In this document: piece after piece, positions 56,395-60,626 of the stretch
Numbering within the stretch: position 1 is the first letter of the stretch
Layout: every line of letters starts with the position of its first letter
Source: Bryobacteraceae bacterium
GTDB lineage: Bacteria > Acidobacteriota > Terriglobia > Bryobacterales > Bryobacteraceae
Length of the DNA stretch: 64,000 bases
Assembly (NCBI GenBank): GCA_035632375.1
Contig: DASQGY010000037.1
Coordinates: 5,610 to 69,609 of the forward strand
Direction: 5' to 3'
Translations under genes and position numbers: made by a program
Notes under the pieces: model-generated
What the model was told of the DNA's origin: nothing
What the model saw: the letters and a program-made list of their open reading frames with translations, nothing else
The model's database searches: none

Positions 56395-57381
56395 GTGAAG
56401 ATGGCAAACATCGGGTGTCGGGAAGAAAAACCGGGGACAGGTAGCTCTGTCCACGCGCCGGTGAGCTACCAGCGGTTCCCTCGGGATTTCGGCGGCTTGG
56501 GACAGAGTAACCTGTCCCCGGTTTTTCTGTTGCTCCTTTTTGCCGGACTGGTGGTGGGGCAGCATCAGCACGCCGCTGCGGCTGCTGAGAAGCCGGTTTC
56601 GCTGCTGCCTGGCCTGGGGACCTGGCGGCATCCCATTGCTACGAAGAATCCGGAGGCGCAGAAGTATTTCGATCAGGGGCTGATTCTGGTTTATGGATTC
56701 AACCGGCCGGAGGCGCTGCGGTCGTTTCGCAAGGCGGCGGAGTTGGATCCACAGGCGACGATGCCCTGGTGGGGCGTGGCCATGGCCTTGGGGCCGTACC
56801 TCAACATGGACATGGATCCGGATGTGCACTTGAAGGAATCGTGCGAGGCCGTGAACAGCGGGCTGCAGCGGGCGGGCATCGGCCCGGTGGAGCGCGACTG
56901 GCTGGAGGCCGCTAAGGCTCGGTGTCCGGATTTCGCCGAACCTGGCCGTTACGTGCGGGCCATGCGCGAACTGGCGGCGAAGTATCCGGACGATCCCGAC
57001 GCGCAGACGTTGTACGCCGAAGCGCTGATGCTTCCGGTGCGATGGAAGTGGTACGGGCCCGATGGGAAGCCCGCCGAGGGTGTCGCCGAGGCGGAGCGTG
57101 TGCTCGAATCGGTGCTGCATCGGCATCCGGATCATCCGGGGGCGAACCATTTTTACATCCACGTGGTGGAGTCGTCACCCACGCCAGAGCGGGCGGTTCC
57201 GAGCGCGCAACGATTGATGGGGATCGTGCCGGCCGCGGGTCACATCGTACATATGCCGGGCCATATCTGGCTGCTGCTGGGCGATTTCAATAACACCGTC
57301 GCGGTGAATGAGCGCGCGGTGGAAGTGGACCGGCAGTATTTCGAACAGACCGGGATGATGAGCAGTTACTACTCTTACTAC
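56395..57381 (+). pseudogene. 5' fragment of a TPR-like/helical-repeat secreted protein gene split by the IS1595 element
   Basis: The reading frame ...RAVEVDRQYFEQTGMMSSYYSYY is fused at 57382 to IS-derived codons (GKNILDYSLVSWHD*). It continues in phase at 59895 (LHNLQFILYARAMQG...) once the element and one copy of the 8-bp duplication are removed. The true start is uncertain because the first ~45 codons lie in the MITE-like repeat. Confidence 0.8.
56425..56527. repeat. 103-bp palindromic MITE-like element, copy A
   Basis: GAAAAACCGGGGACAGG...CTGTCCACGCGCCGG...GGGATT.CGGCGGCTTGGGACAG...CCTGTCCCCGGTTTTTC. The termini are inverted repeats of each other. A second 103-bp copy lies at 63056-63158 and shares these blocks. 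Confidence 0.8.
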
Positions 57382-57428
57382 GGCAAGAATATACTTGACT
57401 ACTCCCTGGTTTCGTGGCATGATTAGTC

Positions 57429-58385
57429 ATGGCCGCTGAACCCAAGACCCTTCAAGAAGCTATCGTATACTTCGACGATCCTCAGAACTGCCTCGACTAC
57501 ATGGTAGCGCGGCGCTGGCCGAAAGGCGTCACCTGTCCCACTTGCGGCAATACCAAGGTGAAGTTTCAACCCAAACATTACCGCTGGCAGTGCAGCACGA
57601 AGCATCCTAGGCGGCAGTTCACCGCGAAGGTCGGTACGATCTACGAAGACTCCCCTATTGGTCTGGACAAGTGGCTAACCGCAACCTGGATGATTACGAA
57701 TTGCAAAAACGGCAACAGTTCCTGGGAGCTTCACCGGACTCTGGGAGTTACCCAAAAGACCGCGTGGTTCATGGGGCATCGGATTCGGCTTGCGATGCAG
57801 GATATGGCGGGCGGCAAGCTGGGCGGCGAAGTCGAGATTGACGAAACCTTCATCGGCGGCAAGGCGCGGAACATGCACAAAGAGAAACGCGAGCGCGTCA
57901 TCACCGGCACTGGCGGAAAAGACAAGACCGTAGTCATGGGCATGATGGAACGCGGCGGAAACGTGCGGGCGATGGTCGTAGACACCCGCCGGAAGAAAGA
58001 ACTCCAGAGCCAAGTACGTGAGCACGTCGAAGCGGGCGCGGCGATCTTCACCGACGAACTGAAATCCTACGACGGGCTGGAGAACAGCTTTCAGCATCAG
58101 GTCATCAATCACGCCGTGGAGTACGTCAACGGCAACGTGCATACCAACGCCATGGAAAACTTCTGGAGTTTGCTCAAGCGCGGCCTGCACGGAACCTACG
58201 TGTCGGTCGAACCGTTCCACCTGTTCCGCTACATCGACGAACAGGCATTTCGGTTCAACAATCGCAAGGGCATGGACGACGCAGACCGCTTCGACGCGGT
58301 TGTGAAGCAAATTGTGGGGAAGCGGTTGACCTATGCGGAACTCACTGGGAAACTAGATCCGAGTGCGACGCAAGCGATCAACTGA
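57429..58385 (+). CDS. IS1595-family transposase (N-terminal zinc-ribbon plus ISXO2-like DDE domain)
   Basis: FDDPQNCLDYMVARRWPKGVTCPTCGNTKV...YRWQCSTKHPRRQFTAKVGTIYEDSPIGLDKWLTATWMI (Zn_Tnp_IS1595 pattern). Followed by EIDETFIGGK..., ...IFTDELKSY..., ...HQVINH...YVNGNVHTNAMENFWSLLKR (DDE_Tnp_IS1595 pattern). Confidence 0.92.
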   Translation: MAAEPKTLQEAIVYFDDPQNCLDYMVARRWPKGVTCPTCGNTKVKFQPKHYRWQCSTKHPRRQFTAKVGTIYEDSPIGLDKWLTATWMITNCKNGNSSWELHRTLGVTQKTAWFMGHRIRLAMQDMAGGKLGGEVEIDETFIGGKARNMHKEKRERVITGTGGKDKTVVMGMMERGGNVRAMVVDTRRKKELQSQVREHVEAGAAIFTDELKSYDGLENSFQHQVINHAVEYVNGNVHTNAMENFWSLLKRGLHGTYVSVEPFHLFRYIDEQAFRFNNRKGMDDADRFDAVVKQIVGKRLTYAELTGKLDPSATQAIN

Positions 58386-58442
58386 GAAGTCCAGAAGATT
58401 GAAGCGCGGCAGAAAGCCGCGTATAATTGAGCCATAGACAAC

Positions 58443-58486
58443 GAAGGCCGGACGCGAGTGCAAATCGTTCCGGCCTTCTGAATTTT
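58443..58486 (+). terminator. Rho-independent terminator after the transposase gene
   Basis: GAAGGCCGGA (58443-52), a 16-nt loop, then TCCGGCCTTC (58469-78), followed by TGAATTTT. Confidence 0.6.
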
Positions 58487-58617
58487 GCCGTTTGTTGAGT
58501 ACGGCGGGTTCAGGCACCCCCATCGTACTTCAGGTGGTTCTCCCTGTCAATAACGGCTGTAAGTGAAAGTGTGCCAACTACGTTAGCGCGAGACGGGAAA
58601 GGAGGACCAAATAAAAC

Positions 58618-58776
58618 ATGCGAGTCCCCTACTACTGGGTACATCGAAACGCGCCGTGCTTTGCTGTATGCTGTCCGCAACCACAAAGCACGGCCACAAA
58701 CCCGATGATAACTGCTGCTATCATCGGAGCAGTGGCAACTGTTGTAGCGGCCTGTATATCGAGTAGCAGTCGATAA
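58618..58776 (+). CDS. Possible 52-aa small membrane peptide inside the IS cargo
   Basis: Below the track's size cut-off. The ATG is preceded by GGAAAGGAGGA, though the spacer is rather long (12 nt). Sequence: MRVPYYWVHRNAPCFAVCCPQPQSTATNPMITAAIIGAVATVVAACISSSSR, i.e. Cys-rich then one hydrophobic helix. Speculative. Confidence 0.25.
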   Translation: MRVPYYWVHRNAPCFAVCCPQPQSTATNPMITAAIIGAVATVVAACISSSSR

Positions 58777-58781
58777 CCGGC

Positions 58782-58955
58782 TTACCGCATTCGCGCGGTC
58801 TTAGACTTCGGTTTGGGACCGCGCTTGTGCGGATTCTTTGCGGCCTGCCTCTTGTAGGCGTCCATCCGTCTCTTCAGTTCATCATGTGAGACGGTCAGGA
58901 TGTGGTCCATGGTGCGGTTGAACGCTTCGAACTCCGGGTTCGGTTCGGTCTTCAT
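58782..58955 (-). CDS. Possible 57-aa basic helical protein directly downstream of the 303-aa cargo gene
   Basis: Below the track's size cut-off. Sequence: MKTEPNPEFEAFNRTMDHILTVSHDELKRRMDAYKRQAAKNPHKRGPKPKSKTARMR. It starts 7 nt after the stop of the 303-aa ORF on the same strand. Confidence 0.35.
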   Translation of the reverse strand: MKTEPNPEFEAFNRTMDHILTVSHDELKRRMDAYKRQAAKNPHKRGPKPKSKTARMR

Positions 58956-58961
58956 CTGTTT

Positions 58962-59873
58962 TTAGCTTACTTCCTTTAGGCCGCACCTCGCTAGGCATTT
59001 CATGAAGTCCCCGACATTCCTAAACACTAGAGCGGCCTCCTCTGGTGTGCAAGGCCCCCGCTGGTGAGAGATGTAGTTCCTCCAGGCGTTCTTGAAATGA
59101 AAAAAGTGTAAAGACGCATCTCCATATGTTTGCAACTTGTCCGTCTTGGCTTGGCCGCGTGGTTGTTGCTTCTCTATGGCCTTAATCGCCGCGTCGATTG
59201 CGTCGATGATAGTACTCCAGTCTTGGTACTCGAACGGAATCGAAAATGGCACGTTCAGGTCACGAGCTAAGGTACGCAGGCCGATTTCAAGCACCCTCAT
59301 ACAATGGAACACACAAGCGGTAGCTCTGTCGGTTACGTAACAGAGGCTTGCGTCGTATAAATCATCCATTGCGGAACTGAAGTTCGACGCCACATCATGC
59401 CCCCAAAAAGGTTCGGTCCTGAATTCTTCTCGCGTCTTCAGATACTCTCTACGGGCAGGATCAAACTGCACGAACGTATGCTCTTTCAGTTCCTCTCGAA
59501 ACAACGCCGCAAGCCTTTTGACGGAGAGCTTCAATTGTTCGTGTGTATGCTCAGTTCCGTATTCAGAGATAAGGCAGTCTATAGTAACGGCAGTCTTCTC
59601 AAGACCCATGGCCTTGGCATCATTGCCAATCTCAGCCAATTTGTTCAGGAAGTTCTGCCGTTGTTCATGTCCCATCTCACGATCAGGCATCACATCCGCA
59701 ACGGGGTTGCTATAAAAACTCTGAATATCTATGCCGATCTGCACGAACCTGAAAACGTCCCTAGGTATCACGTCGGAGAGACTCCAGATTCGTAACGGTT
59801 TGCCGCGCCAGTCCCATTGAACACACGTAGGCCCACAGGATTTATTTTGGCAGAGGTGGAGGGGAGTAGTCAA
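58962..59873 (-). CDS. Passenger protein with C-terminal HEPN-like helical domain (Rx4H motif)
   Basis: All-helical. The C-terminal ~130 aa read ...ATACVFHCMRVLEIGLRTLARDL...IIDAIDAAIKAIEK...HFFHFKNAWRNYISHQRG...EAALVFRNVGDFMKCL. This gives the R-N-Y-I-S-H = Rx4H signature in the helix-pair context typical of HEPN/DUF4145/Abi_C-type domains. The start is uncertain: the track's TTG start (59873) lies inside the right IR, and ATG candidates lie at complement 59688-59690 and 59673-59675. A/T-richer than the host DNA. Confidence 0.55.
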   Translation of the reverse strand: MTTPLHLCQNKSCGPTCVQWDWRGKPLRIWSLSDVIPRDVFRFVQIGIDIQSFYSNPVADVMPDREMGHEQRQNFLNKLAEIGNDAKAMGLEKTAVTIDCLISEYGTEHTHEQLKLSVKRLAALFREELKEHTFVQFDPARREYLKTREEFRTEPFWGHDVASNFSSAMDDLYDASLCYVTDRATACVFHCMRVLEIGLRTLARDLNVPFSIPFEYQDWSTIIDAIDAAIKAIEKQQPRGQAKTDKLQTYGDASLHFFHFKNAWRNYISHQRGPCTPEEAALVFRNVGDFMKCLARCGLKEVS

Positions 59874-59886
59874 CTATATTATTACC

Positions 59887-60626
59887 CTTACTACCTGCAC
59901 AACCTGCAGTTCATTTTGTATGCCCGGGCGATGCAAGGCAGGCTGGTGGAAACGAAGAAGGCCGCGCAGCAGATGACCGCGGCGGCGAAAGAGATGGCGG
60001 CCACAATGCCGGAGATGGCCGAAGTATTCCAGCTTTTCGTGACTATGTCGGAATTGCGGCTGTATCGCTGGGATGAGCTGCTGGCGGTGGCGCGGCCCAA
60101 GACCGAGAATCCGCTCACGATGGCGATGTGGCATTACGCGCGAGCGTTGGCACTTGCCGCCAAGGGCCGGGCCGGCGAGGCGCAGACGCAGCAGGCGGAG
60201 TTCGAGAAACTGGCGAAGACGTTGGATCGTAACATGCCCTGGGATACAAACAAGCTGGGCGACGTAATGGATATGGCATCGGCGGCGCTGAGCGCGCGAT
60301 TGGAGACTTCTCCCGCGGCTGCGATCGCCAAGTGGAGGCATGCAGTGGCGCATCAGGATGCGTTGATGTACGACGAACCGCCGGCCTGGTACTACCCGCT
60401 GCGGGAGTCGCTGGGGGCGGCGATGCTCTTGTCGGGGGATGCGTCTGGGGCGGAAACGGTATTCCGGGAAGGCTTGCGGCGGAGTCCGAACAATGGCCGG
60501 ATGCTGTTTGGTCTGCTGGAGAGTTTGAAGGCGCAGGGGAAGGCGGAGGCAGTGTCGTGGGTGCAGCGCGAGTTTGAGACCGCGTGGAAGGGCGCGGATG
60601 TTGAGTTGCGGCTAAAGGATCTTTGA
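59887..60626 (+). pseudogene. 3' fragment of the IS-interrupted TPR-like protein gene
   Basis: ...YYLHNLQFILYARAMQGRLVETKKAAQQM...AMWHYARALALAAKGRAGEAQ...FREGLRRSPNNGRMLFGLLESLKAQGK (TPR-like helices). In phase with the 5' fragment after removal of the IS. Confidence 0.8.

Follow-up and report, generated by a model that had tools for sequence, protein, structure and literature searches.

An IS1595-family insertion sequence of a Bryobacteraceae bacterium carries a candidate HEPN-like effector gene in an apparently variable cargo slot

An intact insertion sequence of the IS1595 family has its non-transposase half at positions 58386-59873 of the DNA studied here. The DNA is a 64,000-nt stretch (the window) of contig DASQGY010000037.1 from a Bryobacteraceae bacterium (GCA_035632375.1), and the element occupies positions 57382-59886 of it (2,505 bp). 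It is moderately probable that the IS lineage of this element has a slot in which effector genes of defence or toxin type can be exchanged, and that the slot is filled here by the gene of a latent HEPN RNase.

The element begins with IRL and the transposase gene (tnp), which reads rightward, and ends with a small gene (smA) and a cargo gene, both reading leftward, and IRR. Its features and those of its borders are as follows.

57374-57381, no strand: left copy of the TSD, 8 bp CTTACTAC, an octamer identical to the right copy
57382-57406, plus strand: IRL, GGCAAGAATATACTTGACTACTCCC, agreeing with IRR at 22 of 25 positions
57395-57423, plus strand: promoter-like site in IRL, TTGACT, 17-nt spacer, CATGAT, 6 nt 5' of the tnp ATG
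57429-58385, plus strand: IS1595-family transposase, 318 aa, Zn ribbon and DDE, from Pfam and NCBIfam matches
58443-58478, plus strand: terminator-like hairpin 3' of tnp, GAAGGCCGGA...TCCGGCCTTC, then a U-rich tail; fold z-score -2.9
58618-58776, plus strand: 52-aa ORF, probably no gene, without homologue and overlapping hairpins
58782-58955, minus strand: smA, small basic protein of 57 aa with the motif EFxxFxxxxxxxLxV(P/S)xxEL and a K/R-rich tail
58962-59873, minus strand: HEPN-like cargo gene, maximal ORF of 303 aa from TTG 59873, probable start GTG 59771 (269 aa)
58962-59423, minus strand: C-terminal HEPN-like domain, residues ~151-303, from the AF2 model, TM-scores and weak PF05168 matches
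59064-59081, minus strand: putative catalytic motif R-x4-H, R-N-Y-I-S-H (R265 to H270), FKNAWRNYISHQRG
59286-59321, minus strand: TACVFHCMRVLE motif, T185-E196 (TACVFHxMRxxE), second helix of the domain, from the alignment
59844-59873, minus strand: promoter-like site in IRR, TTGACT, 18-nt spacer, TG-CAAAAT, facing the cargo genes
59862-59886, minus strand: IRR, 25 nt, pairing with IRL at 22 of 25 positions
59887-59894, no strand: right copy of the TSD, 8 bp CTTACTAC

The insertion sequence, bounded by its IRs and the TSD, interrupts a host gene. Indeed, in-silico excision of the IS together with one TSD copy regained a continuous host ORF of 572 aa. A preliminary description had taken the region for the cargo of an IS, and the IRs, the TSD and the regained host ORF all support this; the ORFs and motifs which it listed were likewise found in place. 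The transposase matched PF12762 (DDE_Tnp_IS1595) in Pfam with an E-value of 4.7e-43 (147 bits, cut-off 27), PF12760 with 3e-07 (30.8 bits) and NF033547 in NCBIfam with 1.4e-56 (191.8 bits, cut-off 75). A Zn ribbon with an IS1595-type DDE, 25-nt terminal IRs and an 8-bp TSD are thus found together, as in the IS1595 family. The IR consensus GGCAATAATATACTTGAC is common to about 50 related elements. An approximate fit to the IR terminus of the ISNwi1 subgroup, ggnnatTAT in the ISfinder consensus, is seen in the lineage consensus GGCAATAATATAC and in variants such as GGCAATTATATAC. No structured RNA was matched in an Rfam scan of the IS.

The cargo had also been described as A/T-richer than both the transposase gene and the host DNA. 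This is true of the HEPN-like CDS, which has a GC content of 0.50, compared to 0.566 for tnp and 0.59-0.60 for the flanks. It is a family-wide trait: in 45 of 46 elements, the HEPN-like gene has a lower GC content than tnp. The 57-aa CDS, at 0.563, agrees with tnp and not with the cargo.

As for the cargo gene, a 303-aa ORF is present on the strand opposite to the transposase, as first reported. Its 5' end had been placed in the right IR. The TTG at 59873 does lie inside IRR, but it forms the -35 hexamer of the promoter-like site there and was rejected as a start codon. GTG 59771 is the more likely start, giving a product of 269 aa. The window protein's own database entry (P0001) has 269 aa, and the equivalent position of the family profile, position 15, is the start of many members. 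Conservation of "WSL" 5' of the probable start is explicable as in-frame reading of a GGAG Shine-Dalgarno. The close homologues (n = 54) are all labelled hypothetical, and none has a Pfam domain. A profile search of the family retrieved 9,172 cluster representatives (E<=1e-3), or 5,216 with the stricter limit of E<=1e-30. By these matches, the cargo protein is a member of a very large, unnamed family without a Pfam model.

The R-x4-H noticed earlier in the C-terminal third is present, and so is the long helix sequence ACVFHCMRVLEIGLRTLARDL ahead of it. Conservation of the motif among homologues had been proposed as a check on the HEPN assignment, and the motif proved invariant: R265 and H270 are found in 46/46 aligned sequences and Rx4H in 149/149 locus ORFs of at least 240 aa. 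W[RK][NDH]xxxH occurs in 157 of 190 database proteins. In the 46-sequence alignment, A186, C187, V188, F189, H190 and E196 are invariant as well. Since the related loci were collected by the peptide pattern TACVFH[CL]M, the conservation of this second motif among them is partly circular; that of Rx4H is not. The invariant Cys and His near the motif could indicate metal binding, which would not be a classical HEPN site.

The family is associated with insertion sequences. In about 70% of 160 related loci, the gene is part of an IS1595 or IS1 element and stands at its end, close to an IR. An IS1595 transposase adjoins it in about 80 of the 160 and an IS1-type transposase in about 13 more (fragments and three loci with both are counted), and an IS1595-type IR alone remains in 20 further loci. 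IRs and a perfect 8-bp TSD enclose the gene in 55 elements, including the one in the window. The gene is always IR-proximal, 13-110 nt from the terminus. Two identical copies of 2,119 bp with different TSDs (L018 and L019) occur in one MAG. A transporter IS is recognised by a non-transposition gene between the IRs which is mobilised along with the element, and this is what was found. Apart from the transposase, no recurrent neighbour was seen in the related loci, also in those without transposase. No IS is evident in about 30% of them. Annotated plasmids yielded only five distant homologues, each a "hypothetical protein"; two were inspected (H1 and H3), and no IS1595 or IS1 transposase lies beside either. 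One distant plasmid homologue adjoins repA/parAB, with a small ORF downstream.

The position between IRR and smA is, on comparison of related elements, a variable cargo slot. Nucleotide homology to the nearest relatives ends at the tnp stop codon. The slot holds a member of the HEPN-like family here and in dozens of other elements; in sister elements it holds DUF3800, RelA_SpoT (PADLOC candidate PDC-S33), AIPR or PDC-S45. PDC-S33 was matched in PADLOC at 2e-76 and PDC-S45 at 6e-12, and DUF3800 and AIPR were identified with Pfam. This survey of sister cargos covers 11 sampled Tnp clusters only, and the defence reading is guilt by association with them. The family is absent from the PADLOC catalogue: PADLOC-DB v2 models gave 0 matches for the three cargo-half ORFs, and other family members had marginal matches only, e.g., Csx1/Csm6 at 0.0015. 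Co-divergence of cargo and transposase, expected of a gene integral to the IS, was sought and is absent. The pairwise identities of HEPN-like proteins and transposases have a Spearman coefficient of 0.03, with a non-significant Mantel test. For instance, the transposases of L034 and L079 are 90% identical and their cargos 44%.

The smA gene, in turn, is by its distribution the constant companion of this transposase lineage. Of 46 delimited elements, 28 have it, 8 more have a gene of a second small basic family, and about 10 are without it. A first tblastn search returned 13 loci only, an underestimate which was put right by ORF clustering and an HMM; the HMM found smA in 65/161 loci. It occurs in 20/20 loci sampled through close Tnp relatives and follows the IS1595 tnp, being found in 68 of 81 loci with this gene versus 13 of 80 without. 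No relative of smA was found in Pfam or the PDB.

A HEPN assignment had been proposed for the cargo protein, and support for such a fold in the C-terminal domain is weak but consistent. The AF2 model of the domain is all helical, with a pLDDT of 91.6; the R-x4-H region has the lowest confidence (pLDDT ~64). A structure comparison had been suggested as a check, and its outcome is mixed. The highest PDB TM-scores of the domain model are to HEPN crystal structures (1wol 0.54/0.65, 4nqf 0.50/0.52 and 2q00 0.42/0.50), but their Foldseek E-values are 1.8-2.9, and no significant E-value was obtained for the full-length model against the PDB or for the domain model against the PDB and BFVD, all being above 0.1. 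The TM-score ranking is therefore the sole informative output of the fold searches. Among profiles, PF05168 is matched below threshold by 19 of 46 members (41%), with a best E-value of 1e-4, and DUF4145 by 5 of 46, also sub-threshold. The PF05168 matches always lie in the C-terminal domain and span profile positions 3-113 of 117; ten individually checked members scored 13-17.5 bits (cut-off 22). The family has R-x4-6-H with a polar residue after R, the motif of the HEPN superfamily. Searches of Pfam, NCBIfam and PADLOC gave no match for the window protein and nothing significant for the other two cargo-half ORFs; no curated HEPN family profile matched the window protein significantly, and PDB profile searches with full-length and domain-only alignments returned coiled-coil noise only. 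Hence, the invariant motif, the sub-threshold Pfam matches and the TM-scores speak for the assignment, but no search reaches significance. A second HEPN in the N-terminal domain was considered and rejected, as hhalign of the N- against the C-terminal alignment gave a probability of 0.4%.

It had been suggested that transcription of the cargo could depend on the insertion context. This dependence is not needed, because the IR holds an inward promoter-like site. The site in IRL predicts a near-leaderless tnp mRNA, and its geometry recurs in 34 of 40 related elements versus 6% of shuffled controls. At the cargo end, good promoter matches are found in only 15 of 40 elements versus 6% of controls. 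The IRR promoter, with its -35 box within IRR, would transcribe the cargo and the small gene inward and would mirror the IRL promoter, so that IR-bound transposase could damp both. Predicted transcription starts are at about 59837 on the minus strand for the cargo and about 57430 on the plus strand for tnp.

The 52-aa ORF, described earlier as a further gene of the module coding for a small hydrophobic peptide, is probably not a gene. A Shine-Dalgarno-like GGAAAGGAGGA is indeed present upstream, 12 nt from the ATG. Nevertheless, tblastn of the ORF against 160 related loci gave no match. Strong, terminator-like minus-strand hairpins (~58654-58727, z -3.9) overlap it, and its hydrophobic stretch is the hairpin palindrome translated. 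A conserved hydrophobic peptide was rejected on both counts.

Three other explanations can be weighed against the slot with a latent HEPN RNase. The preliminary description saw in the 57-aa ORF a partner of the putative toxin, and a type II toxin-antitoxin addiction pair which stabilises the IS or the replicon, in the way suggested for TA pairs of Tn3-family transposons, is improbable. The two genes are same-strand neighbours, smA beginning 6 nt past the stop of the 303-aa ORF (with a 4-nt overlap in some elements, e.g., L040 and L025), there is precedent for HEPN toxins and for transposon-borne TA modules (PMC7157771), and the plasmid homologue by repA/parAB also has its small downstream ORF. 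However, co-occurrence of the 303-aa and 57-aa genes, the check put forward at the time, turned out differently: smA is a conserved gene, but it tracks the transposase and not the HEPN-like gene. It accompanies DUF3800, RelA_SpoT/PDC-S33, AIPR and PDC-S45 cargos too, and was found in 0 of 10 IS1-type loci with a HEPN-like gene. Because smA co-occurs with the IS1595 tnp regardless of cargo, a dedicated toxin-antitoxin pair is unlikely. Moreover, smA is on the tnp strand in several elements, is missing from some altogether and has a tnp-like GC content, and neither MNT nor another recognised antitoxin domain was detected in any cargo-half ORF. The HEPN-like protein might alternatively be an accessory of IS1/IS1595 transposition, either as an RNase acting on tnp mRNA or host RNA or as an IR-acting factor. 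The transposase is its sole recurrent neighbour, both IS1595 and the related IS1 family have the gene at a fixed IR-proximal place, and its convergent orientation to tnp could make the two transcripts overlap. Such a role is quite improbable, given that unrelated genes take the cargo place in close relatives of the same transposase, that co-divergence is lacking and the gene differs in base composition from the core of the IS, and that plasmid homologues and about 30% of homologous loci have no IS.

A comparably small probability is given to an all-helical passenger which is not a HEPN protein, e.g., a metal-binding or regulatory one using the invariant Cys and His, with a coincidental R-x4-H. 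No HEPN model or structure is matched significantly, spurious weak matches are common for helical bundles, C187 and H190 are unusual for HEPN, and the motif falls in the least confident part of the model. On the other hand, R and H are invariant at only 20-30% identity, R being followed, as is typical, by a polar residue (WRN), the 41% of members that match PF05168 do so independently, over the full-length profile and in the same domain, and the three highest PDB TM-scores are all to HEPN proteins.

In the preferred explanation, that of the slot with a latent HEPN RNase, the cargo protein would have a divergent C-terminal HEPN domain and would be a metal-independent RNase, predicted to be dimeric. 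Its normal state would be latent, the likely sensor or regulator being the unrelated N-terminal helical domain, and its role would be that of an abortive-infection or defence-type conflict effector. Such an effector would benefit the host and so the IS which carries it. The smA product would belong to the IS core, as a cofactor of transposition or as a general regulator, and would not be a cognate antitoxin. A bolder version, rather unlikely as it stands, is that the IS1595 lineage, which abounds in Acidobacteriota and other soil bacteria, is a dedicated miniature shuttle for single-gene immune effectors and that the HEPN-like family is a major undescribed anti-phage RNase. The IR-embedded promoter would then drive an exchangeable effector (HEPN-like, DUF3800, toxSAS-like RelA_SpoT, AIPR and others), and the universal basic protein of ~60 aa would control or license the loaded effector, or couple it to transposition.

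Should the preferred explanation be true, a very large family without Pfam model or functional annotation would gain a prediction, that of an R/H-dependent RNase. The simplest class of transposons would have a structured, promoter-equipped slot which swaps effector genes of defence or toxin type in soil bacteria, and this slot would be a cheap guilt-by-association handle on new defence systems of one gene in little-studied phyla. The conserved smA would be a defined target for work on IS1595 transposition and cargo control. If the shuttle were true, at least 9,000 clusters at 50% identity would represent a major undescribed anti-phage RNase family, and the slot could serve as a mining ground for new defence genes, as with defence islands. 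Even if the HEPN or the defence inference fails, what was found about the anatomy of the IS, its conserved small gene and the modularity of the cargo stands.

IS1595-family elements with passenger genes have reportedly been described as "transporter IS". The element studied here resembles them in its Zn ribbon and IS1595-type DDE, its short IRs starting with GG, its 8-bp TSD and its extra genes inside the IRs; the family is also related to IS1, and IS1 elements were found here to bear the HEPN-like gene as well. In contrast, the passenger here has a set place, with IRR on one side and a conserved small gene on the other, and this slot seems to take interchangeable defence- or toxin-type effector genes. 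No description of this association was found in the accessible literature on ISNwi1 and on IS1595 with HEPN, defence or passenger genes. Defence cargo is also reported for larger transposons, among them Tn7-like elements. The likeness would lie in a transposon that bears diverse defence genes; the difference is that here an IS of 2-3 kb has room for a single effector, with a dedicated slot and promoter.

Tn3-family transposons have RNase-type toxins, one of them HEPN, in TA modules inside the transposition module, which were acquired several times independently and for which a benefit to the transposon was proposed (Lima-Mendez et al. 2020, PMC7157771). An RNase-type toxin gene within the transposition module would be common to both cases. 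However, the Tn3 modules are canonical two-gene pairs with recognised antitoxin domains, beside res sites, whereas no cognate antitoxin is evident here, and it is the large gene that varies beside an unvarying small one. With the HEPN RNases known from abortive infection and defence (DUF4145-like, Abi and PF05168; Anantharaman et al. 2013, PMC3710099), the cargo family shares a modelled all-alpha domain of ~130-150 aa, R-[N/D/H]-x3-H before the last helix, a conserved R..E in an earlier helix, a variable N-terminal helical fusion, fast evolution and association with mobile elements. It differs in passing no existing HEPN model and in its distinctive invariant TACVFH motif. That review describes an integron-borne HEPN and no family linked to IS transposases (PMC3710099). 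Finally, retrons combine a constant core with alternative effectors, such as HEPN in type IX and DUF3800 in type VII (Mestre et al. 2020, PMC7736814). The lineage described here would likewise join a constant core to interchangeable effectors, with DUF3800 and HEPN among both sets, but its core consists of a DDE transposase and a small basic protein instead of a reverse transcriptase and an ncRNA.

The element enclosing the cargo is a clean insertion sequence (IS). This IS1595-family element (57382-59886) has the 8-bp sequence CTTACTAC, perfectly duplicated, on either side, and in silico deletion of 57382-59894 yields an unbroken host ORF of 572 aa. There is no second copy of the element in the window. 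The interrupted host gene lies in two parts (56395-57381 and 59895-60626), and its product has a hydrophobic N-terminal segment and a helical-repeat-like C-terminal part. The three ORFs of the cargo half and both peptide motifs were found by ORF listing and direct reading where the preliminary description had placed them. It was also right that the cargo is A/T-richer than the transposase and the host DNA: GC is 0.50 in the 303-aa coding sequence, against 0.566 in the transposase gene and 0.59-0.60 in the flanks; the 57-aa coding sequence stands at 0.563. The features of the element are as follows.

57382-57406: left inverted repeat (IRL), 25 nt, 22/25 matching the right one
57395-57423: promoter-like site in IRL (TTGACT, 17-nt spacer, CATGAT), ending 6 nt before the transposase ATG
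57429-58385, plus strand: transposase, 318 aa, Pfam DDE_Tnp_IS1595 (4.7e-43) and a zinc ribbon, NCBIfam NF033547 (1.4e-56)
58443-58478, plus strand: terminator-like hairpin after the transposase gene (z -2.9)
58618-58776, plus strand: 52-aa ORF
58654-58727, minus strand: strong hairpins (z -3.9)
58782-58955, minus strand: gene of the 57-aa basic protein, smA
58962-59873, minus strand: maximal 303-aa ORF of the HEPN-like cargo
59873-59844, minus strand: promoter-like site in IRR (TTGACT, 18-nt spacer, TG-CAAAAT)
59862-59886: right inverted repeat (IRR), 25 nt, 22/25 matching the left one

The large ORF had been described as reaching into the right inverted repeat, with transcription possibly dependent on the insertion context. 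Such dependence is not needed, as a promoter-like site sits in IRR and mirrors the one in IRL. The TTG at 59873, where the maximal ORF starts within IRR, is the first half of the -35 hexamer TTGACT. Reading of the sequence from the predicted transcription start onward revealed no canonical start codon before GTG 59771. Start codons are predictions here; the 269-aa length of the protein-database entry of the cargo (P0001) fits a start at GTG 59771, and in the profile alignment the equivalent position is the start of many family members. Because the TTG belongs to the hexamer and the GTG start fits, the ORF most likely reaches into the repeat only through artificial extension. "WSL", which looks conserved upstream, would then be the translation of an in-frame GGAG Shine-Dalgarno sequence. 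Among 40 related elements with convergent genes, a site with at least 9 of 12 matches was present in the transposase-side repeat of 34 (6% in shuffled controls) and on the cargo side of 15. The transposase-side site is σ70-like, with the -35 at IS positions 14-19 and, after a 17-nt spacer, the -10 at 37-42. Since the transposase genes mostly start at IS position 48-52, a leaderless transposase mRNA is predicted across this IS1595 lineage.

Strong hairpins on both strands separate the convergent transposase and cargo units and resemble facing terminators. Those on the minus strand have the look of a terminator region for the convergent cargo operon. They overlap the 52-aa ORF, proposed earlier as a Cys-rich transmembrane peptide, whose hydrophobic stretch is a translated palindrome. 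No homologue occurs in any of the related loci, and this ORF is probably spurious. The 57-aa ORF is a real, conserved gene. Its product is marked by the motif EFxxFxxxxxxxLxVPxSEL and a K/R-rich tail and has no relative in Pfam or the PDB.

The three cargo-half ORFs had no significant match in Pfam, NCBIfam or PADLOC. In a collection of 5.8 billion proteins, 54 close relatives of the 303-aa ORF were found, all annotated as hypothetical and without a Pfam domain. When 1.84 billion cluster representatives were searched with a profile of 46 relatives, 9,172 matched at E<=1e-3, and 5,216 still matched at E<=1e-30. Eight residues are invariant in aligned sequences that are 20-55% identical (A186, C187, V188, F189, H190, E196, R265 and H270), making up the motifs TACVFHxMRxxE and KNAWRNxxxH. 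The R-x4-H motif pointed out earlier is indeed kept at the right distance in all 149 ORFs of 240 aa or more from the related loci, and the stricter W[RK][NDH]xxxH in 157 of 190 database proteins. The related loci were fetched with the TACVFH peptide pattern, so conservation of TACVFH in them is partly circular; that of R-x4-H is unaffected.

Evidence that the cargo is a HEPN protein is consistent but never significant. Scanned singly, 19 of 46 family members matched PF05168 (HEPN; best E 1e-4) and five matched DUF4145. In ten members checked individually, the PF05168 matches were nearly full length (profile positions 3-113 of 117), always lay within the C-terminal ~130 residues and reached 13-17.5 bits where the cut-off is 22; by curated profile, the family fails formal HEPN membership. 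The proposed structural check gave an all-helical AlphaFold2 prediction, with pLDDT 86.8 over the whole protein and 91.6 over residues 151-303. HEPN proteins took the top three TM-scores in the PDB against the C-terminal domain (1wol 0.54/0.65, 4nqf 0.50/0.52, 2q00 0.42/0.50), but no Foldseek match had an E below 0.1, and sequence-profile searches of the PDB were empty. The C-terminal domain is quite probably a divergent HEPN domain; that the protein is not a HEPN nuclease at all, as the missed thresholds would allow and the TM-score ranking speaks against, is improbable. A relationship between the N-terminal ~115 residues and the C-terminal domain was rejected (hhalign probability 0.4%).

The genomic context was studied in 160 loci with relatives: genomes gave 203 hits and metagenomes more than 591, and the 80 best-scoring of each were taken, mostly from MAGs or short contigs. 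The 80 genome loci are GTDB species representatives, mainly Acidobacteriota MAGs, with Bradyrhizobium, Parvibaculum, Chloroflexota, Nitrospirota and Gemmatimonadales among the other taxa. About 80 of these 160 best-scoring loci have an IS1595 transposase in the flank, in most cases downstream and convergent, the arrangement seen in the window, and 20 further loci have an IS1595-type repeat directly upstream of the gene with no transposase seen. In about 13 more, including fragments and three that also have an IS1595 match, an IS1-family transposase adjoins the cargo gene. Loci lacking a transposase showed no other recurrent neighbour. With inverted repeats matching at 17/25 or better and a perfect 8-bp target-site duplication (TSD) as criterion, 55 elements of 1,960-5,345 bp were delimited, including that of the window, and in all of them the distance from one IS end to the start of the HEPN-like gene is 13-110 nt. 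Furthermore, two identical 2,119-bp IS1595 copies (L018, L019) in one Gemmatimonadales MAG have different TSDs, GAAAAAAA and TCTACTAC, which is direct evidence that the unit transposes with its cargo and indicates that it did so recently.

The IS1-type elements (L011, L022, L051, L054, L113, L145, L147; fragments L017, L058, L125) have repeats of the GGnnnTG type (GGTAGTG or GGTGTTG) and 8-bp TSDs; one transposase copy matches Pfam DDE_Tnp_IS1 at 32.6 bits. Their HEPN-like gene is repeat-proximal, upstream of a single-ORF transposase gene on the same strand, and none carries smA or smB, the latter a second small basic family. Distant homologues (25-32% identity, "hypothetical protein") also occur on plasmids, and neither of the two inspected lies beside an IS1595 or IS1 transposase (L162, Croceibacterium atlanticum, NZ_CP011453.2, 10152-11322; L161, Komagataeibacter). 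One directly follows repA/parAB, with a 66-aa ORF after it. In the second case, a 92-aa ORF overlaps the homologue on its upstream side, and a gene for an HNH endonuclease comes after it. Such settings could be ones of stabilisation or defence. The closest relative with usable context (55% identity; L183, 2153-3340) lies on a 4-kb contig with no IS1595 transposase, where it is preceded by an ORF of 68 aa that matches HTH_23 faintly and ends 4 nt upstream.

Sampling by transposase revealed the organisation of the lineage. Proteins 72-97% identical to the window transposase were listed, and the contexts of 11 clusters were looked up. All 20 loci with DNA encode smA (HMM E 1e-15 to 1e-21), convergent with the transposase gene, and the large gene upstream of it varies between clusters; in two, the contig ends just past smA. 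The slot genes found are listed below.

DUF3800: five clusters and one degenerate copy
RelA_SpoT: matches the PADLOC defence candidate PDC-S33 at 2e-76
AIPR: 533 aa
Gene matching the PADLOC defence candidate PDC-S45 at 6e-12: with two ORFs of unknown type

In these sister elements (L163-L182), the listed genes hold the position of the HEPN-like gene and are followed by the same small gene. Where repeats and TSD were found, the slot genes lie inside elements of 2.2-4.6 kb. An IS21-family element (rve and IstB) is nested in the IS1595 element carrying RelA_SpoT/PDC-S33 (L165, 3950-8586; L166). Across pairs of elements, the identity of the HEPN-like proteins does not correlate with that of the transposases (Spearman 0.03; 643 of 2,000 Mantel permutations at least as high), with strongly discordant pairs (transposase vs cargo 90% vs 44% for L034/L079, 76% vs 24% for L086/L055, 61% vs 77% for L102/L015). 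The window IS resembles its nearest relatives at the nucleotide level (79%) up to the transposase stop codon and no further, and the cargo is A/T-richer than the transposase gene in 45 of 46 elements. The variable large gene, the constant smA and the lack of correlation show that repeats, transposase and smA form the constant core of the lineage, and that the slot between IRR and smA takes exchangeable cargo.

This bears on the small protein, which had been proposed as partner of the HEPN-like protein. The two genes do co-occur, smA being present in 28 of 46 non-redundant delimited elements and smB in eight more by ORF clustering, and HMM searches of 161 loci gave 65 with smA and 17 with smB. 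In all cases the small gene separates the large gene from the transposase gene, in either orientation, sometimes overlapping the upstream stop codon by 4 nt. However, smA also accompanies non-HEPN cargos, and the small genes track the IS1595 transposase (68/81 loci with it, 13/80 without, 0/10 of IS1 type). The small protein would more plausibly be an IS-core cofactor or general regulator than a cognate antitoxin, and a true toxin-antitoxin pair is unlikely. smB (L028, L035, L041, L055, L069, L086, L098, L119; motif SERFIETAxxxGxD...FExAFxKI) replaces smA in a subgroup including several proteobacterial-type elements, whose transposases are 36-41% identical to that of the window; it may be analogous to smA or share a very distant ancestry with it.

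The cargo protein is probably a latent HEPN RNase, whose N-terminal domain may sense or regulate, and transposase bound at the repeats could repress both inward promoters. There is little probability that the protein is instead an RNase regulating the IS itself. Its slot-mates, AIPR, the toxSAS-like RelA_SpoT, DUF3800 and the PADLOC candidates, would be defence- or toxin-type effectors, and DUF3800 and HEPN are both retron-associated effector domains (PMC7736814). For these reasons, an abortive-infection or defence role of the HEPN-like cargo is suggested but not proven.

IS1595 elements with passenger genes were reportedly described by Siguier and co-workers in 2009. Searches of the literature on IS1595 with HEPN, defence or passenger genes, or on ISNwi1, did not find this association, an absence which is no proof of novelty. 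Tn3-family transposons carry integral toxin-antitoxin modules, including one HEPN-MNT pair (PMC7157771), and a review of the HEPN superfamily mentions an integron-borne HEPN but no IS-linked family (PMC3710099). The element of the window is an IS with passengers, set apart by a structured cargo slot that has its own promoter-like site, by a small protein that is conserved, and by a HEPN-like cargo family that is unnamed and very large.
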